Source: an uncultured Microthrixaceae bacterium
Lineage (GTDB): Bacteria; Actinomycetota; Acidimicrobiia; Acidimicrobiales; VFJN01
Assembly: GCA_963717755.1 (NCBI GenBank)
Contig: CAVQWY010000002.1
Coordinates: forward strand, 682,393-746,392
Length of the DNA: 64,000 bases
Direction: 5' to 3'
The position numbers were made by a program, and so were the translations under genes. Shown here piece by piece: positions 3,283 to 60,105 of this stretch (position 1 is the stretch's first letter; each line of letters opens with the position of its first letter). The notes under the pieces are model-generated. The model did not search any database and was not told where the DNA came from. It saw only the letters and a list, made by a program, of their open reading frames with translations.

Positions 3283-3290
3283 CGACGCGG

Positions 3291-4569: not shown

Positions 4570-4576
4570 GGGTGCA

Positions 4577-5905: not shown

Positions 5906-5979
5906 GGCAGGGATGACCTTAGTGGTCGCCCACCACCCGCCGTGATCGCCGCGACCGGGGGGTCGGTAGCCTCGGCGCC

Positions 5980-41272: not shown

Positions 41273-41281
41273 ACTGCCGTT

Positions 41282-41293
41282 GAAATCGATTTC
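41282..41293. promoter_or_regulatory. 12-bp AT-rich perfect palindrome GAAATCGATTTC
   Basis: Only AT-rich patch in the 46-bp gap upstream of the PhyH-family gene. Could be an operator or part of a -10 region. Confidence 0.25.
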
Positions 41294-41318
41294 GATCGGG
41301 TCGGGGGGCTGGGCGGTG

Positions 41319-42180: not shown

Positions 42181-42184
42181 CGCG

Positions 42185-42637
42185 TCAGCTCAGCACGTCC
42201 TCGATGCGCTCGAGCGTGGCGGCCATGTTCTTGGCCGCGGTCTTGCCGCCCGGCGCCACCGCCGGCTTGGTGAGCGGTGACTCCTGCGAGATGTCCCAGC
42301 TCTCGCGCACGAGCGTGCCGCCGTCGGTGGGCTCGAGCTCGTAGCGCCAGATGCGGCCGCCCACGAGGTGGCCGATGCAGCGACGGGCCGCGCGTCTGCC
42401 ACGCGATGCGGCGGCCCTCCTCGAACTCGATGACCTTGCTCTCCATCGCGTACGGGACGCCCATCACCATCGACATGCCGAACTTGCTCCCGAGCCGCAG
42501 GCGCTCGACCGTGCCCACCGCGTCGCGGACCGTGCCGGAGCCATCGATGTCCCGATGGCGGTTCGGGTCGGCGACAGATCGAAGATCTCCGCGGCGGGAG
42601 CGGGGATGAACCGCTCGACGCTGACGACATCAGCCAT
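42185..42637 (-). pseudogene. SRPBCC (START/polyketide-cyclase-like) family protein, 2 frameshifts
   Basis: MADVVSVERFIPAPAAEIFDL..., GSKFGMSMVMGVPYAMESKVIEFEEGRRIAWQT and GGRIWRYELEPTDGGTLVRESWD... lie in three different frames. Confidence 0.65.
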
Positions 42638-42664
42638 GGTCGGCTCCTGGTGTCGGTGTTCGGG

Positions 42665-43148
42665 CTACGACTGCCCGAGGGCGGCTTCCACTTCGGCCTT
42701 GACCCCGTCGGGGAGCGTGGTGCCGGCGACCCGGCCGATGCCCTCGAAGCGCTTGAGCTCCTCGATGACGGCGGGATCGAGGCCCGGCGTCGACGAGCAG
42801 CAGCAGGGCGGAGGTGCCGGGGTCGATCCAGCCCGCCATGTCCTTGACCCACGCGTCCTCGAGGCCCTTGTCGACCAGCTTGCCGTAGAGCGCGCCGGCG
42901 GCCGCTCCGCCGATGGCGGCGCCGAGGAACACCGGCCCGCCGATGAGCAGCCCGCCGAGCATCCCCCACCAGGTGCCGGACGAGCGCGCCCTTGAGCGGG
43001 GTGACGTCGACCGTCTCGACGATCCGGGTGTGGCCCTCGCTCGTCCTTGGCGACGATCACGGCATCGTGCATCTTCAGCTTGCCCTCGCCGGCCAGGTTC
43101 AGCGAGCACGAGCAGCAGCTCCGAGGCCCGGCTCGGCTTGTCGAGCAC
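42665..43148 (-). pseudogene. DUF1269-like membrane protein (glycine-zipper), at least 4 frameshifts
   Basis: Segments LDKPSRASELLLVLA / NLAGEGKLKMHDAVIVAKDERG / HTRIVETVDVTPLKGALV / GTWWGMLGGLLIGG...GALYGKLVDKGLEDAW...PGTSALLLLV / LDPAVIEELKRFEG... alternate among all three frames. Start unresolved. Confidence 0.6.
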
Positions 43149-43264
43149 GATGGCCAGGATCTCCTGGCCAGACTCGGGCCGTCAGGATCGGCGGGCGAGT
43201 GGGGAGTCGCTCACCGCGCCGACGCTACAAGCGGGCCGACGCGTTCCGGCCCTACGGTGCGCCC

Positions 43265-44320
43265 GTGCTGCCCGACGACCCTCTGCTGCCGCTGCCGCCC
43301 CAGCCTGCCGGCGTGCCCTGGCCGACCGAGGCGTGGCCCACGGCTGATCCGCCGGCCGCCGTGGTCGCGCTGGTGGACGAGCTGTCGAGGACACCGATCG
43401 CTACGGCACCACGTACGCGGTCGCGGTCGTGCAGGGAGGACGGCTGCTCCTCGACCGCTACGGCGGTGCGCTGCCGCACTTCGACCGGCCGCCGGAGCCC
43501 GTCGAGCCGGACACGCCCCTGCTGTCGTGGTCGATGGCCAAGTCGGTGCTGCACGCCGGCATCGGCGTGCTGGTGGGGGAGGGACGGCTGTCGCTCGACG
43601 CGCCGCCGGGGGTGCCGGGCTGGACGGACGGTCGCGCCGCCATCACGCTCGACCACCTCCTGCAGATGCGCGACGGGCTCGAGTGGGCCGAGGACTACGT
43701 GGACGCCGGCGTGTCGCAACGTCATCGAGATGCTGTTCGGCGCGGGCCAGGACGACGTGGCCGCGTACGCGGAGGCGCGGCCCGCTCGAGTCCACGAGCC
43801 GGGCACCACTTCAACTACTCGTCGGGCACCTCGAACATCGTGGCGGCCGATCCTCGGCCGCGAGGTCGGCGCGGGCGAGGCCGTGCGCCGGTTCCTCCTC
43901 GACCGCGTGTTGCACCCGATCGGGATGCGCTCGGCCGATCCTCGCGTCGACGCGGCCGGCACGTTCATCGGATCGTCCTACGTGTACGCCACCGCGCAGG
44001 ACTGGGCCCGGCTTCGGCACCCTGCACCTCCGCGACGGCGTGTGGGACGGCCAGCGCATCCTGCCCGAGGGGTGGGTCGACCACGGCCGCCGGCCGCGCT
44101 CGGTGGACCCCACCGACGGCGACGATCTACGGCGCCCACTGGTGGATGGACCACCTCGACGTGGAGCGGGGCACCTTCCGGGCGTCCGGCTACGAAGGGC
44201 CAGTCGGTCGCCATCTGCCCGGCCCTCGACGCGGTGGCCGTCCGCCTCGGCAAGACCGACGAGCCGATCACCGAGAACCTCCCGCCCTGGCGCAAGCGCC
44301 TCTTCGACGCGCTGAGCTGA
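43265..44320 (+). pseudogene. Beta-lactamase-related serine hydrolase, at least 7 frameshifts
   Basis: SWSMAKSV (SxxK), HLLQMRDGLEW, HFNYSSGTSNIVA, YGAHWW and SGYEGQSVAICP are recovered only by hopping among ORFs 42992.., 43047.. and 43429... Confidence 0.7.
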
Positions 44321-44355
44321 GCCAGCCGATTCGGTTGCAGCGGTGCGCCGGTACG

Positions 44356-45966
44356 GTGCTGCTGGTGACGGACCAACCCCCGGGTCCTCCCGCTCCGCCC
44401 GGCGGCTGGATCGAGCTGCCGGACGACTCGCCGCCCCCGTTGCCTCCGCGTCCTGCGTCTGGAGCGTGGCTCTCGCTGGGTCCGGCCGGGCCGCCGCTTC
44501 CACCTCCGCCCCTGCCGGCGCCTCCGTCGGCGGGGCGGCCGCGTTGGCCGCTTCCGGTGGCCGCGGTGCTGCTCGTCCTGGGCGCGGGCGCCTTCGCGCT
44601 GTCTCGGCGAGACAGCGGTCGTCGTTTCCCGAAGGAGTGGGACGCAGCGCGTGGTTCGGATGGTCGAGTTCGTGGAGCACGAGCGGAAGCTGACCTTCGA
44701 CCACCCGGTCCGCATCGACTTCCTCGACGAAGCCGAATGGGAGGAGCAGGGCAGCATCGACGACGAGGACGTAACCGACGAGGACCGGCAGCTGTTGGAG
44801 CACGGCGCAGGACTGTTCCGCGCCGTGGGCCTGGCCGAGGGCGACCTCGACCTGCTGTCCGACACCGAGGAGCTCGGCACGAGCGGCACCGTCGGCCGGT
44901 ACAGCTTCGAGGAGCAGCTGATCACCGTCCGTGGAACCGAGCTGAGCCGTGAGGTCGAGGCGACCCTCATCCACGAGCTCACCCACGTGCTCCAGGATCA
45001 GCACTTCAAGATCGGCGAGCGGTTGCAGCGGCTCGGCGACGACGACAACGCCGAGGGGTCGCTGCGGGCGCTCGTCGAGGGCGACGCGGACCGCATCGAG
45101 GACAAGTGGGTGGAGGACCTGCCGGACGAAGGAGCGGGACGTCCTCGAGGAGGAGCGGTCCGCGGGAGGCGACGAGGCCAACGAGACCCTCGACGAGCTG
45201 CCGAGCTCGCTGGTCACCTTCTTCGCGGCCGACTACATCCTCGGCTCGGGGTTCCTGTCGATCGTGGAGGCGGCCGACGGCACGTCGGCCATCGACGACG
45301 CGTTCCGGTCGCCCCCGGGACCGGAGGAGCACGTGTTCGATCCGATCTCGTACCTGGAGGACGACGATCCGAGCGAGGTCGAGCTGCCGAGCGTGAACGG
45401 CGAGGCGATCGAGGACATGGACGGTGACTTCGGGGCGGTGAGCTGGTTCCTCATGCTGGCCGAGCGGATCGATCCCGTGGAGGCGTTCGCGGCAGTGGAC
45501 GGGTGGGGTGGCGACGCGTTCCGCGCCTTCACGGACGGCGACCGCACGTGCGTGGCGTTGCGGTTCGTCGGTGAGACCGAGGACGCCGCGACCACCATGG
45601 AGACGTCGCTCGCGGAATGGGCGGCGGCGATGCCGGCCGAAGGCGGAGGCCGAGGCGGCCCTCACGGGCGACATGGTGAACGTGGCGACGTGCGATCCGG
45701 GTGCCGAAGCGGACATCCTGGAAGGGAACGGACGATCACAGGAGGCGATCTCGCTCGTCGCGACGCGCACCACGCTGGCGGCCCAGGTGCTCGACAGCGG
45801 GGGAACCAACGATCAGGCGCGGTGCTTCTCGAGCGGGCTGATTGCGAGCCTCGGCTACGAGCTGATCGTCGACGACGAGCCGACGGCCGCCCAGGAGGAG
45901 CAGATCCAGCAGCTCGCCACCGACCAGGCCGCCGCTGCCGCTAGGCCGGGTCAGGACCGCGGGTGA
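44356..45966 (+). pseudogene. Membrane-anchored HExxH putative zinc metallopeptidase, at least 3 frameshifts (near 44640, 45130, 45640)
   Basis: Pro-rich N-terminus and TM helix (PLPVAAVLLVLGAGAFAL). LIHELTHVLQDQHF and ALVEGDADRIEDKW. Segments lie in ORFs 43429.., 44651.., 44949.. and 45508... Start uncertain. Confidence 0.55.
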
Positions 45967-46055
45967 GGCGGCTCGTCGGCGAGCTGGGCCTCGTGGCGTT
46001 CCTTCTCGTCCTGGAGGGCCTGCAATACCGCCATCATGATCTTGTTCATGTCCTG
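45951..46055 (-). pseudogene. Displaced 3' fragment of the MFS transporter gene (QDMNKIMMAVLQALQDEKERHEAQLADEPPHPRS-stop)
   Basis: Near-identical to the C-terminal codons of the MFS gene at 52185..52290. It sits at the left junction of the island. Confidence 0.7.
45997..46054. repeat. Left copy of 58-bp direct repeat (attL candidate)
   Basis: cgttccttctcgtcctggagggcctgcaaTacCgccatcatgatcttgttcatgtcct. Differs from the right copy at 46026 and 46029. Confidence 0.8.
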
Positions 46056-46100
46056 ACGTGAGGCACTGAAGCCCAGGTCAGAGCGGGTACGCCGATCCGC

Positions 46101-46118
46101 CGTGCCATCTACGTGCCA
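46101..46118. repeat. 18-bp motif CGTGCCA-TCTA-CGTGCCA (left, inside element)
   Basis: Exact 18-mer also present at 52110..52127. Contains an internal 7-bp direct repeat at 11-bp spacing. Lies 47 bp inside attL. Confidence 0.6.
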
Positions 46119-46128
46119 CAAGCGCTGC

Positions 46129-46410
46129 TCATTGGGAGCCCGAGGGCTCTGGACGGCGCCGTGCGGGCTCCTCGTCGCCGTGCAGTACGAGCGGGTCGAG
46201 ATCCAGCCCGTTCGGCCAGACGACATCGCCGTCCTCGACTCTGACCTGCGCGAAGAACGACGGATCCTTCAGCGGCTCGAACATCGGGCCCCACAGCCGG
46301 TCAGCGAGGTCCGTGTCGTGCACCACGCCGTCGTCGAAGGTCACCCGGATCGCGTAGGGAGGGAGCACCTCGACGGCGACTGGCCTCGGGATTCGGTCGT
46401 ACTTCTTCAT
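46129..46410 (-). CDS. DUF2442-like small protein
   Basis: MKKYDRIPRPVAVEVLPPYAIRVTFDDGVVHDTDL...VVWPNGLDLDP. The ATGA overlaps the DUF4160-like gene. Confidence 0.65.
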   Translation of the reverse strand: MKKYDRIPRPVAVEVLPPYAIRVTFDDGVVHDTDLADRLWGPMFEPLKDPSFFAQVRVEDGDVVWPNGLDLDPLVLHGDEEPARRRPEPSGSQ

Positions 46411-46667
46411 GGCAACGGCTCGATCGTACCGGGATCGCCAGAATCGGCGGCTCGGTTCCACGCGTGGTGAAGGTCAGCGACATGAAGCGCGTGCCATGTG
46501 CGAACGAGTCGTAGAGCTCTGCGAGGCAGGGAGCCCGCCAACACAGAACCGTCTTCGATCCGAAGGAGCACGTCGTGCTCCCCGTAGCGAGCGTGGAAGT
46601 GGGGCGGCGGATGATCGTCCCAGTACATCGTGATGACGATGCCGTAGAAGGTTGAGAGCCGAGGCAC
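46407..46667 (-). CDS. DUF4160-like small protein
   Basis: VPRLSTFYGIVITMYWDDHPPPHFHARYGEHDVLLRI...LPRRALRLV. The GTG lies 2 nt after the integrase stop. Confidence 0.65.
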   Translation of the reverse strand: MPRLSTFYGIVITMYWDDHPPPHFHARYGEHDVLLRIEDGSVLAGSLPRRALRLVRTWHALHVADLHHAWNRAADSGDPGTIEPLP

Positions 46668-46669
46668 GC

Positions 46670-47764
46670 TCAGCCGTCCTCGGACAGTGCGCGGAACGTG
46701 TGATCGAGGCGGGCCATGACCGCGTCGTTGGTCTCGGAGAACAGGTGGCCGTAGACGTCGGCGGTGATCTGGACCGAGCTGTGGCCGAGCCAGCGGCTCA
46801 CCTGCAGCAGGTTCGCCCCCATCTCGACCCACAGCGGAACGGCTGAGTGGCGCAGGTGGTGGAAGCGCAGCGACGGGAAGCCCGCTGCCTCGCGGGCGGG
46901 CTTCCACACGTCGCCGTGCCAGTTCCCCGCGTGGAGGCGTCCACCCCGGGACGCCGTGAAGACGAGGGTGTCGTGGTCGGCCCTGTCGATCGTCTGGAGG
47001 TGCGCCCCCAGGACCGTGGCGAGGAACCCGGGGATGGGCACGGACCGGCGACCGGACGCCGTCTTCGGCTCGGCACGGTCGGGACCGACCTGCGGTGCGG
47101 TCTCCTCGACGTGGACGAGTCGCCGAGGGAGGTCAACCCGCCCGACTCGAAGGCCGGCGATCTCGGCGAACCGAAGTCCGCAGACGCCGGCGACGAAGAT
47201 CATCGGCCGCCAGCTCGCCGGGGTCGCATCGGCGAGGCGAACGAGGGCCTCTGGACGGACGACGGTGACGCTCGTCTTCGGGATGGGCGGCAATCGCACG
47301 CCGCGGGTGGGCGCTCGCTCGATCAGCTCGAGGTCGACCGCCGTCCGCAGCGCCGAGCGGAGCACGGCGTAGACGGAGTGCGTGGTGCCGGCGCCGAGCG
47401 TCTCCGTCAGCCCGGCGACGAAGCGCTGCACGTCCTGCGGACGGAGATCCGAGAGGGGAGTGGCGCCGAGCGCCGGGCTCGATGTGGGCGCGGATGGCGC
47501 TTCGATCTCTGGCGAGCGTTCCGGGCCGTTTGTGGAGGGAGTGCTGGGTGCGCCACCGCTCGAGCCACTCGCCGACCGTCAGGTCCGGCTCAGGGTCCCC
47601 GACCACGAAGGTGCCGCGTTGCAGGTCCGTCTCCGCCATGGCGAGCCAGCGAGCGGCGTCGGCCTTCGTGGTGAAGGTGGTGGGCGCGGGCGACCCGTCG
47701 GGGAGCCGGGCCTGGTAGCGGCCCGACGGCAAGCGGCGGACAGCCCGAACTGACGTCTGCCCAT
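46670..47764 (-). pseudogene. int: Tyrosine recombinase/integrase, 2 frameshifts (near 47735 and 47465)
   Basis: MGRRQFG | VRRLPSGRYQARLPDG...TKADAARWL | QRFVAGL... Catalytic FHHLRHS and LGHSSVQITADVYGHL. Confidence 0.85.
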
Positions 47765-47813
47765 GGCGAACCTCCGAGGCAGCGGCGATGGCCGCAGCGG
47801 GTGCGAGGGGACC

Positions 47814-48131
47814 TCAGCGGTCCCGAGGAGGCTCGGCCTGAGCGGGCCGGCGACGCGAAGCCAACCGTACCGGTGGGGTGAGACGTTCGCCGTGCCGGTG
47901 CGAGTCGATCCACGCGTCGATCTCGAGCGGATCGAACCGCAGCAGGTGCCCCCATTTCACGAACGGGATCCGTCGTTCGTGGACCAGGCGCCGCACGTGT
48001 CGAAGCTCAACGCCGAGTAGCTCGGCAACCTCTGCGATAGGGATCAGCCTGCGGGGCAATGGAAGCGGGTGCGAGGAGTCGTGCGTCCACGTGACACTCC
48101 TGGAGGTGCGTGGTGGTCCTCCGCGGGACAC
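47814..48131 (-). CDS. xis: Excisionase-family helix-turn-helix DNA-binding protein
   Basis: LIPIAEVAELLGVELRHVRRLVHERRIPFVKWGHLLRFDPLEIDAWI. The likely true start is TTG 48059. Directly upstream of int. Confidence 0.7.
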   Translation of the reverse strand: MSRGGPPRTSRSVTWTHDSSHPLPLPRRLIPIAEVAELLGVELRHVRRLVHERRIPFVKWGHLLRFDPLEIDAWIDSHRHGERLTPPVRLASRRRPAQAEPPRDR

Positions 48132-48499
48132 ATCGGTGGTCCCGAGAGCCGTCCAGTGGTCAGAAGGTCAGCCCTCGGGTCCTTCCCCCGGCTGGACGGC
48201 GGGGGCCGACGGGGACCGACGAGCGCCGCGATCCATGTCTCAGCGGCAGTCCGTCCTCGCTGCGCCCTTGCGCCTGATAGAGGGTGGGGTGCAGGCGTTG
48301 CGGGTTCGCTCGTAGCGTTCGAGGGCCTGGTGGGCGGTCTCGACTTTGCCCTGCCACCGGTTCGGTTGGCTTCTCAACGATCTGGCCGCTCGCTGGGTTC
48401 TCGCTGCGGCGTGGCTCGAAATAGGCGAGACGCAACGGCCCCTCATCAGGACTGCCCGCCGTGGCACACCACCACAACGGACAGTCATGAGGAGGAGAT

Positions 48500-49517
48500 G
48501 TGTTCATCATCGGGATCGACCCTCACAAGGGGTCCCATACCGCGGCGGTGCTCGACGATCAGGAGGCGCTCGTCGGTGAGCTCCGTGTCGTGGCGGACCG
48601 GCGACAACGCGATCAGCTGTTGCGGTTCGCGTCGCCGTTCGCGCCGAGGACGTGGGCCATCGAAGCTGCCGGCGGGCTCGGCGCGCTGTTAGCGCAGCAG
48701 CTCGTGGCGGTCGGTGAGACCGTGCTTGACGTGCCCCCGGCGCTGTCGGCTCGGGCACGGTTGTTGGACTCGGGACGCACCGACAAGAGCGATCCGCACG
48801 ACGCCCGCTCCGCCGCGATCGTGGCGTTGCGGCACGACTCACTGCAGTTGGTTCGACCGGTCGATCACACCGCGGTGCTGCGGCTGTTGGCGGACCGCCG
48901 CCACGATCTGCGAGGGCTGCGGACCCAGGCGGTCTGCCGGCTCCATGCGCTGTTGTGCCTGCTCAGGCCCGGTGGGCTCTCCCAGCGGCTCTCGGCGGAT
49001 CGGGCCGCCAAGGTGCTGCGGTCGATCCGACCGGTCGAACCCGTGGCCGTCGAACGCAAGCGCGTGGCCCTCGAGCTCCTTGGTGATGTCCGCCGCCTCG
49101 ACCAGCAGCTCGCCGCCCTCAGCGAGCGCATCACCATCGCCGTCGAGGCATCCGACACCACCCTCACCGACGTCTACGGGATCGGCCCGATCCTGGCCGC
49201 GACCATCGTCGGCCACACCGCTCACATCGGCCGGTTCCCCACCGCCGGGCACTACGCCCGCTACAACGCCACCGCCCCGATCGAAGCCTCCAGCGGGCCG
49301 CGGGTTCGGCACCGCCTCAACCCCCGCGGGAACCGGCGAGCTCAACCACGCGCTCCACATCGCCGCGGTCACCCAGATCGCGCACGACACGCCGGGCCGC
49401 GTCTACTTCGAACGGAAGCTCGCCGAGGGCAAGACCCGCAAGGAAGCCCTCCGCGCGTTGAAGCGACGCATCAGCGACGTCGTCTACCGCCAACTCCTCG
49501 CCGACGCTCGACGCTGA
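48500..49517 (+). pseudogene. IS110-family transposase, frameshift near 49330
   Basis: AGGAGG 4 nt upstream of the GTG start. N-terminal FIIGIDPHKGSHTAAVLD (DEDD-type). After the shift, the C-terminus is NRELNHALHIAAVTQIAHDTPGRVYFERK... Element ends not identifiable. Confidence 0.85.
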
Positions 49518-49685
49518 TCAGACGGGCCCGGGAGGGCAGACGGGACGACTCTTAGCCAGCGTGGCCGGCTCGACACCCTGAGGCCGGCTCTTCGGACAAG
49601 CCACTCCCGGACCCACACCAACGCTACGTCCGACTGCTTCACCGCGCCCTCGAACACGTCCTTGACACAAACAGGCATCGGTATG

Positions 49686-49707
49686 GGCGGGGCCCGCGGG
49701 CCCCGCC
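49686..49707. terminator. GC-rich near-perfect palindrome GGCGGGGCCC-GC-GGGCCCCGCC between convergent genes
   Basis: 10-bp complementary arms, 11 nt downstream of the second recombinase stop. No U-tract, so this is a candidate only. Confidence 0.35.
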
Positions 49708-49717
49708 GGTGATCGGG

Positions 49718-50641
49718 TTAGGTGGCGCCTTCGACCCAGGCGGCCACGGCGTGGGTGGAGTTGCGGGCGATGGCGTCGCGGTTGCGGTCGTAGTAGGCGA
49801 CCATGCGGCTGTCGGCGTGTCCGGTAGATGCGGCGATGTCTCGTTCGCGTTGGCCGGCGTCGAGGGCGAGGGTGACGAAGGTGTGTCGGAAGCTGTGGGG
49901 CGTGATGCGCTTGGTGATGTGGGCCTGGCGGACGACCCGTGCCACGACTCGGGCGGCGCCGCGGCGGTCCATGCGCGTTCCCGTGGCGGTGACGAAGAGC
50001 GGGCCGGAAAGTGCGGTCGCCCATGACCTCGTCGACGAGCCACGCGGTGCGACTGGCCAGCGGGATGGTCTGTTCCTTGCCGCCCTTGCGGGTCACCCGA
50101 ACCGTGCGGACCCCGCGCCAACGTCCGATGTCCTCGATGTCGATGCCGGTCACCTCCGACACCCGCAGGCCGTTGAGGCCCAGCAGACAGACCAGGGCGT
50201 GATCCCTCGCCGGGAGGTGACTGGCGACGGTGAGGAGATCCGCGAACTCCGTGCGGGTCAGCCCGACGGTGCTCGAGGTTCGCTGCAGCTTCGGGCGGCT
50301 CACGAAGACCATGGGGTTCTCGTCGATGAGCCGGTCGATATGGGCGTACTTGTAGAACCCGGCGAGCGCGTTCAGCCGGGCACCGACGGTCGCCGGCTTG
50401 CGGCCGTGCTGCTCGAGAGTGCGAGCGAAGAGCTCGATCTCCTTCCAAGTCGCCTCGAGCGGGTCGATCCTCGCCTCCTCGCACCACTGGAAGAACTGCC
50501 GCAGAGCCGTCTCGTACGCCTCCCGGGTGCGCTCAACCCGATAGCGAGCGATGAAGGCCATGGCGTGGAGCTCGGCCCGCGAACGCTGCCGCGAACCCGT
50601 CGAGCTACCAGCTCGGCATTCGTCAGATGGATATGGGTCAT
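49718..50641 (-). pseudogene. Second tyrosine recombinase (XerC/D-like), 2 frameshifts (near 50600 and 49990)
   Basis: ATG 50641 with GGAGG 7 nt upstream. MTHIHLTNAE | LAGSSTGSRQRSRAELHAMAFIARYRVERTREAYE...LRVSEV | RMDRRGAARVV...PHSFRHTFVT...MVAYYDR. Confidence 0.8.
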
Positions 50642-50743
50642 CAAAGTTCCTCCGTTCTGCAGCCCGCCGCCACAGAACGCAGCACCTCCATCAGCCGCCG
50701 TCGACGCCACACGCGGCGCCCATACCGGGCAGAGTGTGCACCC

Positions 50744-51418
50744 ATGCTTCATGTCGCGCGATCCGTGATCGCGTTGATCGTCGACTTCGTCGTGGTGAGC
50801 GCCGGCCTCGGTGCCGCGGCCTGGTTGACCGTCGTGCCGGCCATGGACCATGAGGCCGAAGAGCTTGCGTTCGCTGCGATCCTCATCATTTTGTTGGTTC
50901 CGGCTGCGGCCTGGTGGAAGGCCACTCCTGAGCGGCGGCGAAAGTGGTCCGTCGGACGCAGGCTCACTCGGCTGCCGCCGTTCGGGCAGACGGCATACCT
51001 GCCGGAAGGCGCGCATGCCGACTACCGACCATCGCAGACCGTCCGTACGCGAGCGACCTTGGCCAGGATGGAAGTACGTTCGGAGTTCGTGGCCGACGCA
51101 GACCACCGAGTTGAACCCTCTAGCAAGACGGCGCAGCGGCACGAGGCGCGTGCGATCGTCGGGGCCTATCACCAGGAACAGCTACGACGGTTGCTGGAGC
51201 ACGTCCGCGCAGGCTTCGACCAGCTAGATGCGGGTGGGATCGACGAGTTTGAGCTCGACGACCTCATCCACCGCTACAAGCGGGCCGCGAAGCATCTCTG
51301 GGTCTTCTGTGAATCGAGTGGCGGGCAGTTCCTGCCGACGGCCGCGGCCCTGCAGTCCATCCGCGACCGAGGGGAGGAGCGAGATTGGTGGGCTGAGAGC
51401 GAGCGGCGCCGGGATTGA
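50744..51418 (+). CDS. Hypothetical protein with N-terminal TM helices
   Basis: MLHVARSVIALIVDFVVVSAGLGAAAWLTVV... Lower-GC codons. Intact. Could be two fused small genes. No family recognised. Confidence 0.4.
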   Translation: MLHVARSVIALIVDFVVVSAGLGAAAWLTVVPAMDHEAEELAFAAILIILLVPAAAWWKATPERRRKWSVGRRLTRLPPFGQTAYLPEGAHADYRPSQTVRTRATLARMEVRSEFVADADHRVEPSSKTAQRHEARAIVGAYHQEQLRRLLEHVRAGFDQLDAGGIDEFELDDLIHRYKRAAKHLWVFCESSGGQFLPTAAALQSIRDRGEERDWWAESERRRD

Positions 51419-51682
51419 TACCCAATCCTGCCCCGTCTGCCTTCCCGTTGACCTGCCGCCCCGGCGCTGGCGCGCCGAGTTGCCAACGGTCCAAGGCGGC
51501 CTGACCGCCATCCAGACCGATCAGCTCTCGGTCTCTGCGACTCCTTCATGCCGGCCGCTGTCGTTCGCAGCAACTGCGGCCGTGACCCGCCACCCGCTCC
51601 GCGGCTAGGTCGAGATGGGACAGACGATTGCATTGACTGTCCACCTCGGGGGACACCCAGGTCCTGAGGGGCCTAGGTGGGC

Positions 51683-52087
51683 ATGCCGAAGACCTTCTTC
51701 GCCGTGTACGAGCCAGACATCGAGGGCGACGAGTGGCGCGTCCGAATCGAGGGCGTGGACGGATGCCAAGCCTTCGGGCGGAGCTTCCCGACAGCCCGGA
51801 GGCGAATCCGCGAGGTGCTCGGCTGGAAGGTGGGGAGTGATCCAGCGGCGTTGCACATCGAGGATCGGTTGCCCTCACAGATCGCGGCTGTGGCGAAGCG
51901 GGCGAGGCGAGCTCGCCGTGAGGCAGACCGAGCCACCGCGAGGGCGCAGCAGGAGGCAGCCAGTGCAGCGAAGGAGCTGGCCGAGCTGGGGCTCAGCCGG
52001 CGCGACTCCGCTGCGCTGCTCGGCCTGTCGCATCAACGAGTACAGCAGCTCGTTCCCGGCGGTGACGGCGCTTCGAGCTGCTCGTAG
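51683..52087 (+). CDS. HicB-like antitoxin-fold protein with C-terminal HTH
   Basis: MPKTFFAVYEPDIEGDEWRVRIEGVDGCQAFGRSFPTARRRIREVL (HicB-type fold pattern). LGLSRRDSAALLGLSHQRVQQL HTH. No hicA partner seen. Confidence 0.55.
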   Translation: MPKTFFAVYEPDIEGDEWRVRIEGVDGCQAFGRSFPTARRRIREVLGWKVGSDPAALHIEDRLPSQIAAVAKRARRARREADRATARAQQEAASAAKELAELGLSRRDSAALLGLSHQRVQQLVPGGDGASSCS

Positions 52088-52109
52088 ATCGAGTGCAACC
52101 GACTGGTTG

Positions 52110-52127
52110 CGTGCCATCTACGTGCCA
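52110..52127. repeat. 18-bp motif CGTGCCA-TCTA-CGTGCCA (right, inside element)
   Basis: Exact copy in the same orientation, 100 bp inside attR. Confidence 0.6.
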
Positions 52128-52184
52128 GAAGGAACGGAAAATTGGCGGATCTGATGGTCAACGCCGGTCGCTGGCGGACACCGC

Positions 52185-53754
52185 TCAGGCGGGGTGAACT
52201 CCCTGCTCAGCGGCCTTTTCTGCCTGCCGTTCCTTCTCGTCCTGGAGGGCCTGCAAAACGGCCATCATGATCTTGTTCATGTCCTCGTCGAGGAACTTGC
52301 GGGCCCGGAACAGGATGGCGGCGCCGAGGAACGAGCAGTGGTGAGCAGGCGAGGAACGCCACGCGGAGGTTCTCGTCGAAGCTGCCGGAGATGAGCGACG
52401 ACGATGAACGGTGCTGCCGCCTGGCCGCACACCACCGCCACGAGGTTGAAGGCCCCGAACCCGGCGCCGCGGAGGTGGGCCGGGATGGCGTCGGTGAGCC
52501 CGGCGCGGAGACCGGGGATCGACATCGTCATGATGAACAGCCCGATGAGCTGCAGCGACGGCGACCACGATGACGAGGTCGCGCGAGTAGCACGTCGGCT
52601 GCGCAGCAGGTAGGCGGCGGTGAAGAAGAGGTTGCCGCCGGCGATGAAGATGGCGGGGAGGGCCAGTCGCCCGCCCTGCATCTTCGTGGGCGTAGCGATC
52701 GGCCACCCGTCCGCCGAGGAGCACGCCGGGGATCGCCGCCGAAGATGATCAGGACGGTGAAGAGCGCCTCGCCAGTGCCCTCCGCCATGTGGAGGTGGCG
52801 CTCGTAGTACTGGGGGAGCCAGGCCGCCAGGGCGGTCACGGTGAAGAGCAGCGCCGCCACACCGGCGAGCGCGTAGCGCATCGTGCGGATGTCGAGGATC
52901 ACTCGCATGTCCGCCTTGAGCCCGGAGATCATGTCCTGCAGGAACTGGCCGAACCCCTGCTCGAACAGATCGACGTGGTCGTCCTCGTCGGCGTGCTGGA
53001 CGGACCCGGCGCCGATGGCCGCCATCATGTCGGCGGTGCCCCGCTTCGGCTCGCGCATGCGGAACACGAGCATCGGCGACGAGCAGGCCTGGCAGTGCCA
53101 CGATCACGAGGGCCGGCCGCCACCCCCAGTTGGTGCCGATGAACCCGCCGAGGCCCACGCCGACGCCGGTGCCGGCGAGCAGCATCACCTGCTGGATGGA
53201 GAACGCCTTCCCGCGCTGGTCGGGCGGGTAGTAGTCGCCGATGAGGCTGGCGGCCGACGGCTCGGTGATGGCCTGGCCGAAGCCGAGCGCGGATCGCATG
53301 CCGACCAGCATCGGGAAGCCCGACGGACGCCGCGCCGCCGGCGGTGAGCACCGACCAGCCGACGACGGTCCGGCCGATGGCCCGGGTGCGGTTCCAGCGG
53401 TCGGCCAGGTAGCCGGCCGGGACGGTGATCAGGCCGTTGAACAGCAGCGCCAGCGACAGGAGGACGCCGATCCCGACGTCGCCGACGCCGAACTCCTCCT
53501 TGAGCGGGGTGATCATGCCCCGCACGACGTTCTTGTCGACCTCGTCCATGAACAGGACGAGGCCGAGGACCCACATCGGCTCGGTGAAGAGCCGCACGAA
53601 GAACGGGCGCTTGACGTCTCGGGACCGGTTCGCCGGCCGGCTCGTCCGGGGTGGGCGACGCGATGTCCGGCGTCAGCCCGTTGGTGATGAGCGCTGGGAG
53701 CCCCCGCCTCGTCGTCGACGTGTCGAGGCCATGGTCGGTGGGCGGGTCACCCAT
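52185..53754 (-). pseudogene. MFS transporter, at least 6 frameshifts; 3' end rebuilt by the island
   Basis: Hydrophobic MFS-like segments (LADRWNRTRAIG, GFGQAITEPSAASLIGDYYPPDQRGKAFS...) are scattered over ORFs 53185.., 53025.., 52277.., 52528.. and 52185... Confidence 0.7.
52228..52285. repeat. Right copy of 58-bp direct repeat (attR candidate)
   Basis: Same sequence at an offset of 6231 bp. Lies inside the C-terminal coding region of the MFS gene. Confidence 0.8.
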
Positions 53755-53831
53755 GGCGGGACATTCTGCACGATGGGTGCGATCTCCTTGGCATCCGCCG
53801 GTCGGGTGGCCGCACCGCGCGATCGGGCGGC

Positions 53832-54296
53832 ATGCTCGGCGCATGGAGCGCGCTCGTCCTCGCCGTCGTCCTCGCCGCTCGTGGCGGTCGCCGTCGCGGC
53901 CGCGCTCCAGCGCCGGCAGCGTCCAGACGCACCCGTGCGGACCGGGTACGCGGTGCCCGCCCAGCTCGACCGGGACGACTTCGCCCGCCCCGAGGCACCG
54001 TGGCTCGTGGCCGTGTTCACGTCGGCCACCTGCGGCACGTGCGCGGGCGTGTGGGAGCGGGCCCAGCCGCTCGGCCAGCGCCGTCGGTCGCGGTGCAGCA
54101 GCTCGAGCACGTGGCCGACCGGCACCTGCACGACCGCTACGAGATCGAAGCGGTGCCCACCACGCTCGTGGCGGGTCCCGACGGGGTGGTGGCCGCCAGC
54201 TTCCTCGGTCCGGTGACGGCGACCGACCTCTGGGCCGCGGTGGCCGAGGCGCGCGAGCCGGGCAGCACACCCGGCGGCTGCGAGCCGCGGACCTAG
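53832..54296 (+). pseudogene. Membrane-anchored thioredoxin-like protein (C-G-T-C), 2 frameshifts (near 53880 and 54075)
   Basis: MLGAWSALVLAVVLAA | ...APWLVAVFTSATCGTCAGVWE... | VAVQQLEHVADRHLHDRYEIEAVPTTLV. Paralogous in pattern to 3768..4569. Confidence 0.55.
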
Positions 54297-56297
54297 CGTC
54301 GGTGCTGGGGCTTGGTGTCGGTGGCGGCGTGGACAGCTGCCTCGTCGGAGAGCGCCTGAGCCCTCGCCGCGGCCGTCGCTGGCCTGCCACTCACCGAACT
54401 CCTCGATGGCCGACCGACCCTCGCGGCCGAGGGCCACCAGCCGGTACACCTCGGAGCCGTCGATCGTCTCGTGCTCGAGCAGGGCACGGGCCACGAGGTC
54501 GAGGCCGTTGCGGTGCTCGGTGAGCGTCACCCGGCAGCGCTCCTCCTGCTCGCGCAGGATCCGCTCGACCTCTTCGTCGATCACACGGGCCGTCTCGTCG
54601 GAGTAGTCGCGGGAGTGCATGAGGTCGTCGCCGAGGAACACGGCGCCCTGCGAGCCCCACGCCATCGGCCCGACCCGCTCGGACATGCCCCACTCGCGGA
54701 CCATCTTGCGGGCCAGCTCGGTGGAGCCGACGAGGTCGTTGTTGGCGCCGGTGGAGATCACGCCGAACACGAGGTCTTCGGCGATGCGGCCGCCCATGCG
54801 GACGACGAGGCTGTCCTCGATGTAGTCCTGCCGGTAGATGTGGCGATCGTCCATCGGGAGCTGCTGCGTGACGCCGAGCGCCATGCCCATCGGGAGGATG
54901 GTGACCTTGTGCACGGGGTCGGCCTGCGGCAGCACGGCGGCGGCGACGGCGTGGCCGGCCTCGTGGTAGGCGATGGCCTCCTTCTCGCGGTCGGCGAGGG
55001 CCATCGACTCCCGGCGAGCGCCCATGAGCACGCGGTCGCGTGCCAGCTCGAAGTGGCGCTGGAAGATCTCCTCCTCGCCGCCGCGCACGGCGAACAGCGC
55101 GGCCTCGTTGACGAGGTTGGAGAGGTCGGCGCCGGACATGCCGGGGGTGCCCCGGGCGACGACCGCGAGGTCGACGTCGGCTGCCAGGCGCTTGGACTTG
55201 GCGTGGACCCGCAGGATCTCCTCGCGCTCGCTCAGCTCGGGCAGCGGCACGACGACCTGGCGGTCGAAGCGGCCGGGCCGGAGGAGCGCGGGGTCGAGGA
55301 TGTCGGGCCGGTTGGTGGCCGCGATCATCACGATGCCCTCGGTGGCCTCGAAGCCGTCCATCTCCGAGAGCATCTGGTTGAGGGTCTGCTCCCGCTCGTC
55401 GTGCCCGCCACCGAGCCCGGCGCCGCGCTTGCGGCCGATGGAGTCGATCTCGTCGACGAAGATGATCGCCTTGCCCATCTTGCGGGCGCTCTGGAACAGG
55501 TCGCGCACGCGGCTCGCGCCCACGCCCACGAACATCTCCATGAAGTCGGAGCCGGTGACCGACAGGAACGGCACACCGGCCTCGCCCGCCACCGCGCGAG
55601 CGATGAGCGTCTTGCCGGTGCCCGGGGGCCCCACGAGCAGGATGCCCTTCGGGATGCGGGCACCGATCTCGGCGAAGCGGGCCGGGGTCTTGAGGAAGTC
55701 GATGACCTCCTTGACCTCTTCCTTGACGCCCGCGTAGCCCGCCACGTCGGCGAACGTGGTGCCGGGGCGCTCGGTGGAGTACGTCTTGGCCTTCGAGCGG
55801 CCGATCGACATGATCCCGCCCATCTGGCTCTGCGCTCGACGCTGCATGAACCAGAAGAACGCCACGAAGATGGCGACCGGGATCAGGAACGGGAGCAGGC
55901 TCACGAAGAAGCTGGGCGTCGGCGTCTTGTAGTCGACCTCCACGCTCTGGTCGCGCAGCACCTCGAGGTCGGCGTCGGGGATGCCGCCGTCGAGCGGGCC
56001 CGTGGTGCGGAACTCGTCGCCGCCGTCGAGCTCGCCGGAGATCGAGCCGTTGGTGTTGTCGATCTCGACGCTCTTGACGTTGCCCTCGCGCACGTCGGCC
56101 ATGAAGGTGGAGTAGGGCACCTTCTCGGGATCGCCGGCGCCGCTGAGGAGCGGGCCGAGGAGCACGATGCTGAGGGTGAGGCCGAGCAGGGCGTACAGCC
56201 CCCACTTCGGCATGCCTTGGCCCACCAGGCCTCGGCCTGGGCCGCGCTGATCCCGCGGCGGCGGGGGCGGGGGCGGCGGCAACCCCTCAGGACTCAT
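54293..56297 (-). pseudogene. ftsH: ATP-dependent zinc metalloprotease FtsH, frameshift in the last ~20 codons (near 54350)
   Basis: Two TM helices, [19 protein letters not shown] region, HEAGHAV. The in-frame reading runs on to 53673 through Arg-rich nonsense. The alternative frame ends SDEAAVHAATDTKPQHRR, with its stop at 54293. Confidence 0.9.
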
Positions 56298-56379
56298 GGC
56301 GACAGGATACGGGTCGGCCAGCCGGAACCACAGCCAGGGATCCGCGTCGCCCGCTGAGCCCCTGGATAGCGTCGGCTCG

Positions 56380-56610
56380 ATGAGCAGCCGCACCTGCGCC
56401 AAGCCGGGGTGCAACACCAGCGCCTCCGCCACCCTCACGTACGACTACGCGAGTCGCACGGCCTGGGTCGAGCGCCTCAACGACGAGGCCCACCCCATGC
56501 GGTACGACCTCTGCGCCGACCACGCGGACGGCATGCGGGTGCCGCAGGGCTGGGCCCTGCAGGACCGGCGTGTGCGCTATCCCGCCGCGCTCCAGTCGAT
56601 CGCCTCCTGA
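56380..56610 (+). CDS. DUF3499-like small Cys-containing protein
   Basis: MSSRTCAKPGCNTSASATLTYDYASRTAWVERL...YDLCADHADGMRVPQGW. Family name from memory. Confidence 0.65.
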   Translation: MSSRTCAKPGCNTSASATLTYDYASRTAWVERLNDEAHPMRYDLCADHADGMRVPQGWALQDRRVRYPAALQSIAS

Positions 56611-56647
56611 CTTCCGGCGCCCGGACGCGCCCGCGTAGCCTCGTCCG

Positions 56648-57383
56648 GTGACCGAGGCCGCCACCGCCCCCACCGAGGTGCCCGCGCGGCCGCGCTGGGG
56701 CCTCGGTGACGCCGTCGGCGGCTGGGTGGCCGTGCAGATCGTCTCCATGGTGTGGGCCCTTGCGGTGGTCGGCGCCGCCGGGCACTCGGGGGAGGACTTC
56801 GACGACCTCCCCATCTCCGTGGTGGCGCTGGCCCAGCTCGGGCTGGCCCTCGGGTTCTTCGCGGTCCCGTACCTGGCGACCCGCCTGAAGGGCAACGGGC
56901 TCGTCGCCGACCTCGGGGTGCGGGCGCGCTGGCAGGACCTGTGGCAGGGCGGGTTGGCGGGCGCGCTGCTCCAGATCCCGGTGCTCCCGTTGCTGTACTG
57001 GCCGCTGCTCGAGCTGCTCGACAAGACGTCGAGCGATCTCGATGGTCCCGCCGAGTCGCTCACCGACCGGGCCCACGGCGTGGTCGGCGTGCTGCTGCTC
57101 GTGCTCATCGTCGGGGTGCTCGCCCCGATCTTCGAGGAGATCTTCTACCGCGGCCTGCGTCCAGCGGGCGCTGCTCAAGCGAGGGTTGCCGCCCGCCGTC
57201 GCCATCGGCACCACCGCCCTCGTCTTCGGTGCGAGCCACTTCCTCCTGCTGCAGCTGCCCGGCCTGGTGCTCGCCGGCGCGCTCTTCGGCGTGCTCGCGC
57301 ACCGCGCCGGTCGCCTCGGTCCCGCCATCGTCGCCCACGTCGCCTTCAACATGGTGACGGTCGTCGCCTTGCTGGCCGCGTGA
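56648..57383 (+). pseudogene. CPBP-family intramembrane glutamic endopeptidase (CAAX protease-like), frameshift near 57157
   Basis: APIFEEIFYRGL (EExxxR motif), then the frame switches to VQRALLKRG...LVFGASHF...AHVAFNM. Confidence 0.8.
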
Positions 57384-57411
57384 CGGAACGAGCGAGGCTC
57401 GGGGTGCGACG

Positions 57412-60105
57412 ATGACACCCGCCATGGACCAGGAACCGAGGGCGGACAGCGACCTGCTCGTCGACGACCGCGTCGCCGACGACGTCGACGATGGTGACCT
57501 GGACGGGTGGAGCGAGTGGACGGCTGACCTCGAGGACGCCGACGACGACTGGCCCCCGGTGGATCCCGTGGCGATGGAGCGGCGCGATCGCTTCGTGCGC
57601 CAGACCGTCGACTGGGTCGTGGTGGTGGCCTGCGTCGTCTTCGTGTTCGTGAACCTGCACCCCGCTGAGCTCCTGTCCAGCGCGGTGCCCGCCGGGGGCG
57701 ACATGGGGGCCCACGTCTGGGGCCCTGCGTACCTCCGCGACCACCTGCTGCCCGAGGGGCGCATCTCCGGGTGGACGCCCGATTGGTACGCCGGCTTCCC
57801 CGCCTACCAGTTCTACATGGTGTTGCCGTCGCTGCTGATCGTGGCGCTGGACGTCGGGCTCTTCGGCGGCTGGACGATGCTCATCCCGCTGGCCGCAGCC
57901 GCGGCGCTGGTGGTCGCCAGCACGCGCGTGGCTACGGGTTGGCGGCGCTGGGCGGTGATGGCCGCGGCCGTGGCGGTCGCCGTGTTCTGCGTGGAGCTGC
58001 CGTACGGGACCGCCTTCAAGCTGGTGACCATCCTCGGGCTGCTGTCCCTGCCGATCTGCGCGTACGCGTTCGGGCGCCTGGCCGACCTCCCGTTCCCTGG
58101 CCCCGCACTGCTGGCGGTGGCCGCGGTGCTGTTCCTGTTCGACCGCAACTTCACGATCTACGGCGGCAACGTGGCCTCCACCCTGGCCGGCGAGTTCGCC
58201 TTCTCGATCAGCCTGTCGCTGTCGATCCTGTACCTCGGCTTCGTGATCCGCGGGCTGCGCACGGGGAAGCACCGCGCCATGGCGGCTGTGCTCCTCGCCC
58301 TCACGGGCCTGTGCCACCTCATCCCCGCCTTCTTCGCGCTCGCCGGCACGCTGGTCATCGCGCTCCTGCGCCGTCCCGCGCTGCGCACGGTGAAGTGGCT
58401 CGCCTGCGTCCTGCCGGTGGGCGGGCTCATCAGCGCGTTCTGGGTGCTGCCGTTCTGGTGGCAGTCGGCCTACGTGAACGACATGGGGTGGGAGAAGCTG
58501 CCGTACTCCACGGCGGAGAACGGCTTCCGCTCGTGGTCGGACACGCTGTTCAGCTTCGACGGCGAGACCTACTGGAAGTACCTCATCCCGCGGACGGGCG
58601 TCGACTCGCCCAACGACCTGCGCTGGGTGCTGGCGCTCGCCTGCATGGGGCTGGTGCTGTCGATCGCGTTCCGCGTGCGCACCGGGCTCATCCTCGCCGG
58701 GTGCACGGTGCTCATGGGGACGGCGTTCGTGTTCCTCCCCGAGGACCGGCTGTGGAACGCCCGGCTGCTGCCCTTCTACTACCTCGGTCTGTACCTGCTG
58801 GCGGCGGTCGGCGTCGCCGAGGTCGGCCGGACGGTGGCCGTGCTCATCGCCCGCGATCCCGAACGGCCCAGCATCGTGGGGCCGGCGGTCACCGCAGGGT
58901 TGGCGCTGGTGGTGTCCCTCGTGCTCATCAGCCTGCCGCTGCGCATCCTGCCCGGCGGCCACCTGCGCGCCGACGGCAGCTACTCCTGGATGGGGCTGTC
59001 CAACGGCGTCAACAAGGAGAGCTTCGTCCGGTCGTGGGCCCGCTGGAACTACACGGGCTACGAGGGCAAGGACGCGTACGGCGAGTACCGCGCTCTGATG
59101 ATGACGATGGCGGGCGTCGGCGCCGAGCACGGCTGCGGCCGCTCGTTCTGGGAGTACGAGAAGGAGATCAACCGGTACGGCACCCCGATGGCGCTCATGC
59201 TCCTGCCGCACTGGACCGACGGCTGCATCGGCTCGATGGAGGGCCTGTTCTTCGAGGCGTCGGCCACCACGCCGTTCCACTTCCTCACCCAGGTGGAGCT
59301 CAGCGCCGCGCCCAGCGCCGCGCAGCGCGACCTGCCGTACGGCACGTTCGACATCGACAAGGGGGTGCGCCACCTCCAGCTGATGGGCGTGCGGTACTAC
59401 CTCGCCACCTCGGTGGAGGCGACCACCGCGGCGCGCGGCCACCCCGACCTCACGGAGCTGGCCACCTCCGGTCCGTGGGTGATCTTCGAGGTGGCCGACT
59501 CCGCCCTCGTGGCACCGATCGACAACGAACCCGCGGTGCTCGACGGGGTGAGCGACGCGCAGTCGGGCTGGATCTGCCGGACGAAGAACGAGGCCGGCAA
59601 GTGCGACGGACCCGCGGTGCGGTGGTACCAGGACCTCGAGGCGCAGGACGTGCTGCTCGCCTCGTCCGGCCCCGACAGCTGGCAGCACGTGGACATCGAC
59701 GACCCGCAGCCCGTCGAGCGATCGGTCGCCCCCGTCGAGGTCAGCGACATCGACGCCCGGAACGACCACATCTCGTTCGACGTCGACCAGGTCGGCTCCC
59801 CGGTGCTGGTCAAGGCGTCCTACTTCCCCAACTGGCGCGTGAGCGGCGCCGACGGCCCCTACCGCGTGGCGCCGAACCTGATGGTCGTGGTGCCCACCTC
59901 CGAGCACGTCGAGCTCACCTACGGGCGCGAGCCGGTCGAGTGGCTCGCGTACGCGCTGACGGCGCTCGGCATCGCGCTGGCCATCCTCCTCGCCACCCGT
60001 CCGCCGGTGCGGGGACGGCCGGAACCGATCGACCCGCTGGCGATGCCGGAGGGCTGGCCACCCGAGCCCCCGGAGCCGTCGACTCCCCAGCACCTCGTCC
60101 CGTGA
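57412..60105 (+). CDS. Large polytopic membrane protein, putative GT-C-type glycosyltransferase
   Basis: Uninterrupted 897 aa. Acidic N-terminus, at least 10 TM helices (GGDMGAHVWGPAYLRDHLLP...WTPDWYAGFPAYQFY) and a large soluble C-terminal domain. Functional call is inferred from architecture and the neighbouring gene. Confidence 0.6.
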   Translation: MTPAMDQEPRADSDLLVDDRVADDVDDGDLDGWSEWTADLEDADDDWPPVDPVAMERRDRFVRQTVDWVVVVACVVFVFVNLHPAELLSSAVPAGGDMGAHVWGPAYLRDHLLPEGRISGWTPDWYAGFPAYQFYMVLPSLLIVALDVGLFGGWTMLIPLAAAAALVVASTRVATGWRRWAVMAAAVAVAVFCVELPYGTAFKLVTILGLLSLPICAYAFGRLADLPFPGPALLAVAAVLFLFDRNFTIYGGNVASTLAGEFAFSISLSLSILYLGFVIRGLRTGKHRAMAAVLLALTGLCHLIPAFFALAGTLVIALLRRPALRTVKWLACVLPVGGLISAFWVLPFWWQSAYVNDMGWEKLPYSTAENGFRSWSDTLFSFDGETYWKYLIPRTGVDSPNDLRWVLALACMGLVLSIAFRVRTGLILAGCTVLMGTAFVFLPEDRLWNARLLPFYYLGLYLLAAVGVAEVGRTVAVLIARDPERPSIVGPAVTAGLALVVSLVLISLPLRILPGGHLRADGSYSWMGLSNGVNKESFVRSWARWNYTGYEGKDAYGEYRALMMTMAGVGAEHGCGRSFWEYEKEINRYGTPMALMLLPHWTDGCIGSMEGLFFEASATTPFHFLTQVELSAAPSAAQRDLPYGTFDIDKGVRHLQLMGVRYYLATSVEATTAARGHPDLTELATSGPWVIFEVADSALVAPIDNEPAVLDGVSDAQSGWICRTKNEAGKCDGPAVRWYQDLEAQDVLLASSGPDSWQHVDIDDPQPVERSVAPVEVSDIDARNDHISFDVDQVGSPVLVKASYFPNWRVSGADGPYRVAPNLMVVVPTSEHVELTYGREPVEWLAYALTALGIALAILLATRPPVRGRPEPIDPLAMPEGWPPEPPEPSTPQHLVP

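Follow-up and report, generated by a model that had tools for sequence, protein, structure and literature searches.

We analysed a 64-kb stretch of contig CAVQWY010000002.1 (assembly GCA_963717755.1) from an uncultured Microthrixaceae bacterium of the class Acidimicrobiia; this whole stretch is referred to as the window. In it, two direct copies of a 58-bp sequence enclose a 6.2-kb segment that carries integrase (int) and excisionase (xis) genes and reaches into the 3' end of a gene for a transporter of the major facilitator superfamily (MFS). Below, L-numbers denote comparison contigs or loci and P-numbers homologous proteins. The features that define the two ends of the segment are listed from the MFS gene outward.

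52286..53750, minus strand: body of the target MFS transporter gene (Pfam MFS_1; homologs 89% identical)
52228..52285, minus strand: MFS-proximal copy of the attachment (att) core, 58 bp, containing CATGA-N6-TCATG
52185..52227, minus strand: putative element-supplied substitute MFS end, 13 codons and stop (QAEKAAEQGVHPA*), in frame with the right core
52128..52184, minus strand: about 57 nt past the stop codon, conserved in alignments, part of the attP/attB homology
52094..52127, minus strand: P arm motif TGGCACGTAGATGGCACG and then the hairpin GCAACC-N4-GGTTGC; starts 156 nt after GACATG (158 nt after the 58-mer start)
47814..48131, minus strand: excisionase (xis), HTH_17 (PF12728, E=4.6e-10)
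46670..47732, minus strand: tyrosine integrase (int), PF00589 (E=6.6e-16) and SAM_3
46101..46118, minus strand: P' arm motif TGGCACGTAGATGGCACG, candidate arm-type integrase site; starts 66 nt before GACATG (64 nt before the 58-mer start)
45997..46054, minus strand: integrase-proximal copy of the att core, far from the MFS gene, 58 bp
45951..45996, minus strand: putative displaced MFS tail, 14 codons and stop (HEAQLADEPPHPRS*), outside the element and in frame with the left core

Repeats, arm motifs and the two gene ends

The two 58-mers start 6231 bp apart and are identical at 56 of 58 positions; they differ at the other two and in their flanks. A pattern search that allowed up to three mismatches found only these copies in the 64 kb, and since 100 shuffles gave an expectation of 0.00, the pair is not due to chance. 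Beyond the 58-mers, a weaker similarity spans both tails (94 nt at 80%). On the minus strand, the MFS reading frame runs on through the right copy to ...DMNKIMMAVLQALQDEKER-QAEKAAEQGVHPA-stop, and the left copy encodes ...DMNKIMMAVLQALQDEKER-HEAQLADEPPHPRS-stop. No tRNA or tmRNA was found within 40000-58000. The G+C content is about 0.65-0.70 within the element, int excepted, against 0.70-0.74 in the flanks. An earlier note on this DNA had described the repeat at exactly these coordinates and this identity, had put its right copy within the C-terminus of the MFS gene and had held that the target is not a tRNA, all of which the present data bear out. It had also placed an integrative element between the repeats; this agrees with int and xis abutting the left copy, with a candidate arm motif inside both ends and with a related integrase at the same MFS end in eight other assemblies.

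The integrase frame is broken by one extra base near 47477-47479 that is missing from L006 and L175. The motifs HHLRHS and DVYGH are readable in the open reading frame (ORF), both in invariant columns of the family alignment, and the protein is 94% identical to the intact P0121. Relatives of the integrase bear an N-terminal PF26003 domain. The excisionase gene is intact, scoring 45.5 bits with TIGR01764 (cutoff 28.8), and PHROG excisionase families match it too.

Inside both ends of the element lies the 18-mer TGGCACGTAGATGGCACG, of the form TGGCACG-N4-TGGCACG, the offsets of which are given relative to the conserved word GACATG, located two bases inside the 58-mer. At offset -66 it recurs in L006, L007, L087 and L175, that is, at five integrase-proximal junctions with the window included, and a variant stands at a sixth (L176). 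At offset +156 it is present at all four MFS-proximal element junctions that could be examined (window, L007, L023 and L169) and at one of the six distal junctions with enough downstream sequence. The GCAACC-N4-GGTTGC hairpin usually follows directly after the +156 motif; this hairpin (52094-52109 in the window) is kept in L016, L020, L021, L023, L025 and L048, despite strongly differing coding tails. The form TGGCACG-N4-CGGCACG is found at the int end in L172 (11161), L173 (3238) and L174 (1266), which carry 64%-identical integrases elsewhere. Since a related integrase at a different locus has the motif beside it as well, it probably is the arm-binding site, and the two copies in the window are likely to be the arm-type sites of an attP of about 240 bp. 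The word TGGCAC had also suggested a sigma-54 promoter. This candidate was rejected, as the second half of the motif is TGGCACG and not TTGC, and Actinobacteria are not known to have sigma-54.

The core itself has CATGA-N6-TCATG, which provides candidate core-type sites around an overlap region. At core position 29, motif-bearing loci (window, L007, L016 and L020) have T in their MFS-proximal copy, unlike the distal or motif-less copies aligned. Based on this distribution, the crossover would lie within the first ~28 bp. In relatives the attP/attB homology is longer than 58 bp, the L007 junctions sharing about 175 nt.

Homologs of the MFS protein number in the hundreds in metagenome-assembled genomes (MAGs) of Acidimicrobiia, the best being 89% identical. 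The gene body in the window is nearest to L001 (0.85-0.86 identity) and distant from L020 and L035 (0.69-0.79), whereas the tail fused to it has an identity of 0.90 to the tails of L007 and L035, which bear elements, against 0.69 to that of L001, the closest chromosomal relative. That the similarity switches at the core is consistent with horizontal acquisition of the gene end. Both the geometry and the tail identities thus support the proposal, made in the earlier note, that the element provides the MFS gene with a substitute end. The other tail overlaps the 3' end of a convergent DUF8575 gene, and the same tail stands at the same junction in the sister contig L175. It is colinear with MFS tails in the alignment and opens with HE, like those of the closest relatives P0001, P0002, P0008 and P0011; its neighbours, the DUF8575 and beta-lactamase genes, are chromosomal in L176. 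It is therefore plausible, from these comparisons, that HEAQLADEPPHPRS represents the original native MFS end. That tail had earlier been described as the displaced original end, which holds as far as colinearity, the HE start and the chromosomal neighbours in L176 go, but is not matched by any genome with the exact empty site.

The MFS 3' end in related genomes

Integrases 71-94% identical to that of the window lie directly downstream of an orthologous MFS gene or beside a displaced MFS core in eight assemblies (L006, L007, L023, L087, L167, L169, L175 and L176), and every context recovered for integrases of this similarity was the MFS 3' end. An alignment of the core with genomes carrying related integrases had been proposed earlier as a check; these eight are such genomes. 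A complete element of 3.15 kb is found in L007 (81% integrase), in which both junctions lie 3151 bp apart on one short-read contig. Its order is MFS-core-tail-motif, relaxase remnant, xis, int, HicA, HicB, DUF2442, P' motif, core and tail. In L006 (94% integrase), xis-int is followed by two small ORFs, the P' motif, the core, the displaced tail and DUF5719-GT2. In L169 (72% integrase), the MFS gene is followed by a type II CBASS (cyclic oligonucleotide-based antiphage signalling system) and then by int; the CBASS is complete (2450-6426; cyclase, E2, E1, JAB and a NucC nuclease effector), with strong PADLOC matches throughout. No second core copy was found on the L169 or L023 contigs. L167 and L008 belong to the same MAG, with the L008 contig ending just past the MFS gene and the integrase located on L167. 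The sister contig L175 is 95.5% identical to window positions 43579-48249 and shares the DUF8575 neighbour, the displaced tail, the core, the P' motif and the DUF2442-DUF4160-int-xis order. Its interior differs from that of the window element, and it carries insertions of the ISL3 and IS3 types. In L176, DUF1269-DUF8575-beta-lactamase is chromosomal and a DUF2442-int module stands with a displaced MFS core and tail.

Integrases of about 64% identity (L171-L174) are not beside the MFS gene, those of L171-L173 adjoining an Exo_endo_phos gene instead, which sets a rough limit to the MFS-specific clade. In a scan of metagenomes with the integrase alignment, L087 was the sole relevant match, and one of the two peptide patterns used was too generic.

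Occupied sites are the exception. Among 80 species-level genomes with the MFS gene, L007 and L023 were the only ones in which a hidden Markov model of the integrase family found an integrase within 10 kb; L008 may be added via L167. In most related genomes, the core is present once and an integrase is lacking. In L001 and L004, the synteny DUF3499-FtsH-thioredoxin-MFS is kept with a single core, and the DNA downstream of the MFS gene is variable until the DUF1269, DUF5719 and GT2 genes resume; the window diverges from L001 between 43228 and 52110. A search for the empty site in related genomes had been suggested earlier. A single core without an integrase was indeed found in most relatives, but the exact same-species site with HEAQLADEPPHPRS was not.

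Some loci at the same site carry a transfer gene. A TrwC-type relaxase (863 aa) comes directly after the P arm motif beside the MFS gene in L020/L170 (11539-14130) and L035 (3389-5965), and L007 retains only the last 164 residues of such a protein (4327-4818). In L170 the relaxase is followed by TIR, Peptidase_M78/DUF4411 and Imm35 genes. With a full-length TrwC after the motif, L020 (OY970242.1) and L035 look like larger elements, the integrase of which would lie beyond the fetched flank. As these relatives carry TrwC at the same site, the window copy is a derivative of a mobilizable island, non-autonomous and without a relaxase.

The DNA downstream of the MFS gene is also rich in toxin-antitoxin genes in L004 (11730-13294), L006 (5796-6453), L007 (7814-8438) and L001 (11773-12437). 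The pairs are HipBA-like, PIN/PhdYeFM and RHH/PIN, the last read from ORF translations. Their presence fits leftovers of successive insertions.

Cargo of the element and quality of the tract

Between the arm motifs, the window element carries the following further genes and units.

46129..46410, minus strand: DUF2442 gene, partner of the DUF4160 gene (Pfam PF10387, E=1.5e-10)
46407..46664, minus strand: DUF4160 gene, DhiT toxin-like (Pfam PF13711, E=2e-19)
48400..50731, no strand assigned: nested 2.33-kb unit with an IS110 transposase and a second recombinase, rec2 (Pfam, NCBIfam)
48500-49517, plus strand: IS110-family DEDD transposase (PF01548, E=3e-21; PF02371, E=4e-11; Transposase_20 domain)
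49718-50561, minus strand: XerD-like tyrosine recombinase rec2 (Pfam, NCBIfam)
~50744..51418, plus strand: predicted membrane protein, family-less cargo, from its ORF (weak RDD match, E=0.006)
51677..52087, plus strand: HicB-like antitoxin with a C-terminal helix-turn-helix (PHROG 8245, E=2.3e-16)

The Pfam domains of the DUF4160 and DUF2442 proteins are clear, and the former scores 69.8 bits with NCBIfam toxin_DhiT, under the cutoff of 100. A DUF2442 gene also adjoins the integrase in L007, L167, L175 and L176. For the HicB-like gene, a search for a HicA partner found none. The membrane protein has no PADLOC, PHROG or NCBIfam match, and PADLOC gave no defence-system match for the window cargo as a whole.

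The nested unit is 99.5% identical to L175 18781-21109, where it is inverted and has other flanks; outside the unit, the element is only 95.5% identical. As a composite, the unit may be mobile and may have moved recently. The frameshifted transposase ORF scores 131 bits with NCBIfam transpos_IS110, slightly under the cutoff of 140. A perfect 22-bp palindrome (49686-49707) between the convergent transposase and rec2 genes is probably a terminator shared by both. There is also a 20-nt inverted repeat, 47857-47876 and 48354-48373 (19/20 complementary), one arm of which lies in the 3' coding region of xis and the other some 45 nt outside the unit, the left boundary of which is at 48400. An Rfam scan of the element gave nothing above noise, with no IS110 bridge-RNA family and no match at the 47857-48373 inverted repeat.

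Neither replication, transfer nor virion genes were found among the ORFs that fill the 6.2 kb (Pfam, PHROG, NCBIfam), with no Rep, FtsK-like protein or type IV secretion system, and tblastn with the L020 TrwC protein had no match in the window. Nor does the window copy have a recognisable origin of transfer (oriT). The gene content listed in the earlier note was recovered in full (Phage_integrase, HTH_17/excisionase, DUF4160, DUF2442, IS110 DEDD transposase, second tyrosine recombinase, membrane protein and HicB-like), as was its statement that replication, conjugation and capsid genes are lacking among the ORFs of the element. Its description of the element as minimal or decayed fares differently in its two halves. 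Minimal is justified by the missing relaxase, given TrwC in L020 and L035 and its remnant in L007, but the frameshifts are poor evidence for decay.

The frame breaks, which the earlier note does not mention, were mapped in alignments of the window with three contigs, namely the syntenic L001 (84% nucleotide identity), L006 and the sister contig L175. Almost all are single-base insertions, and these disrupt the MFS, thioredoxin-like, DUF8575, beta-lactamase-like, int, IS110 and rec2 genes; the MFS gene body as given has nine of them, mapped against L001. In total, about 25 uncompensated insertions, mostly of G or C and outside homopolymers, are confined to ~42380-54290, and none was found in 36476-41275 or 54400-61253. 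Those in int, IS110 and rec2 are not present in L175 and L006. We therefore regard 42380-54290 as a 12-kb poor-consensus tract centred on the element, in which the frameshifts are probably consensus errors; low depth or a minority haplotype in the long-read assembly could be behind it. Gene decay was set aside as the first choice of cause, because the changes are almost all single-base insertions in one 12-kb tract that are absent from L175, L006 and L001. Consequently, it can't be argued from the frameshifts that the element is decayed.

Origin of the element and its place among known systems

Taken together, these observations make it very probable that the 6.2-kb segment is a tyrosine-integrase island that integrated site-specifically at the 3' end of the MFS gene and replaced the gene end. 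The attP of such an island would duplicate the final ~30 codons of an Acidimicrobiia MFS gene along with post-stop sequence. Recombination by the integrase between this attP and the 3' end of the chromosomal MFS gene would have taken place in the first ~28 bp of the core, a stretch that includes CATGA-N6-TCATG. As the sequence shows, the MFS gene now ends in element DNA (QAEKAAEQGVHPA-stop), its putative former end (HEAQLADEPPHPRS-stop) lying 6.2 kb off beyond the other core. The TGGCACG-N4-TGGCACG motif inside both ends is likely to serve the N-terminal domain of the integrase as arm-type sites, and int and xis together could re-excise the element. The cargo is toxin-antitoxin-like and has received an insertion, the IS110/recombinase unit.

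Several observations weigh against this interpretation. The element region falls within the poor-consensus tract. A same-species exact empty site, that is, an MFS gene ending in HEAQLADEPPHPRS beside DUF8575, was found in no genome; the DUF8575 neighbour is within 10 kb of the MFS gene in 0 of the 80 genomes, and the closest homolog context, L175, is also occupied. The +156 motif occurs beside the MFS gene in 11 species-level loci without an integrase within 10 kb (L001, L014-L016, L020, L021, L024, L025, L035, L042 and L048), nine of which, all but L020 and L035, have no relaxase within that distance either. The motif could thus be native rather than a P arm, unless these loci hold remnants or parts of larger elements. 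In L001 it probably is a remnant, given that chromosomal synteny resumes after 2.7 kb. Finally, the element is common to the window and L175 at about 95% identity and bears insertion sequences (IS), so it may be old and fixed.

This last point leads to the alternative that survives best, namely that the island did integrate but is now a fixed, vertically inherited, IS-eroded and immobile remnant. We consider this possible, if rather doubtful. It would be consistent with the same distal junction and tail in L175 at 95.5% with a rearranged interior, with the lack of a relaxase in the window copy, unlike its relatives, with the IS110/rec2 insertion in the window and the ISL3 and IS3-type insertions in L175, and with the frameshift in int as given. 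However, the att copies are still 56/58 identical, the att sites, both arm motifs and xis appear to be undamaged, and the frameshift in int amounts to one extra base, absent from L175 and L006, in an insertion-rich tract.

Far less probable is a reversed polarity, in which the MFS-fused tail and the DNA downstream of it would be native and the left copy with its tail foreign. What speaks for it is that the right tail fits the family consensus ...AEKAA-QG-HPA, common to many genomes, and that about 75 nt past the MFS stop codon are homologous to the integrase-free L001. On the other hand, an integrase element is the segment between its repeats, which leaves the left tail outside the mobile unit. 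Moreover, conserved post-stop sequence is also kept by the displaced tails at the distal junctions of L006, L007 and L176, the +156 motif goes with MFS-proximal junctions, and the left tail is kept with DUF8575 in L175, the latter gene being chromosomal in L176.

An assembly artefact, either a long-read misjoin or a collapsed haplotype, is suggested by the ~25 insertions, none of them in the flanks, which point to a thin or mixed consensus, but we give it hardly any credence because the two copies differ at two positions and in their flanks, and the same layout recurs in L007 (both junctions, from short reads), L169, L023 and L175, which are independent assemblies. A decayed prophage or phage satellite, to which phage-type matches of int and xis might point, is just as hard to sustain, for the element lacks any capsid, terminase, primase or repressor module, PHROG matches are restricted to int, xis, HicB and unknowns, and the relatives carry a conjugative relaxase and no phage genes.

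The site-specific island that we favour has parallels among several known systems. Actinomycete integrative and conjugative elements (AICEs) such as pSAM2 and SLP1 are small actinobacterial elements with an int-xis module and an attP that duplicates the 3' end of the target gene; their targets are usually tRNA genes, and they code for Rep and an FtsK-like Tra. The window element resembles them in int-xis and in the 3'-end duplication but has neither Rep nor an FtsK-like Tra. Integrative mobilizable elements combine an integrase with a relaxase and have no mating apparatus; the relaxase is what L020 and L035, with TrwC beside the P arm at the same MFS site, and L007, with its remnant, have in common with them, whereas the window copy, without a relaxase or recognisable oriT, fails the defining feature. 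Like e14 and phage 21 at icd, the element is a tyrosine-integrase element in the 3' part of a protein-coding gene, with a substitute 3' end and a displaced pseudo-end at the far junction; e14 in Escherichia coli icd leaves a displaced 163-bp icd' (PMC6379469). It differs from them in host phylum, integrase clade and target (an MFS transporter), in its shorter core (58 bp) and in the absence of phage functions. The dusA-associated islands described by Farrugia et al. (2015) target the 5' end of dusA in Proteobacteria by means of a dedicated integrase clade, with highly variable cargo, the integrase as the sole universal gene and excision shown by PCR (PMC4482086). A dedicated integrase clade at one conserved protein-coding gene is what they have in common with our element. 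The clade described here, however, targets an MFS 3' end in Acidimicrobiia.

In our searches of the literature, we found no characterised mobile element described for Acidimicrobiia, nor an earlier description of such islands at this target gene. The integration mechanism itself is textbook, and the value of the finding is therefore that of cataloguing and of a possible genetic tool rather than of a new concept. It is tempting to speculate, although we would put it forward only tentatively, that the integrase clade and its ~240-bp attP constitute a dedicated Acidimicrobiia system that repeatedly loads defence and toxin-antitoxin cargo (CBASS, HicAB, DhiT-like) at one transporter gene, each time replacing the cytoplasmic tail and leaving older arms and cargo behind as a growing downstream hotspot. 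The locus shows where Acidimicrobiia genomes gather defence and toxin-antitoxin genes. For a class known mostly from metagenomes, it also offers a testable integration system consisting of an integrase, an excisionase, a short core and candidate arm sites. If active, the system would give the uncultured class Acidimicrobiia its first usable tool for site-specific integration and its first described family of mobilizable islands.

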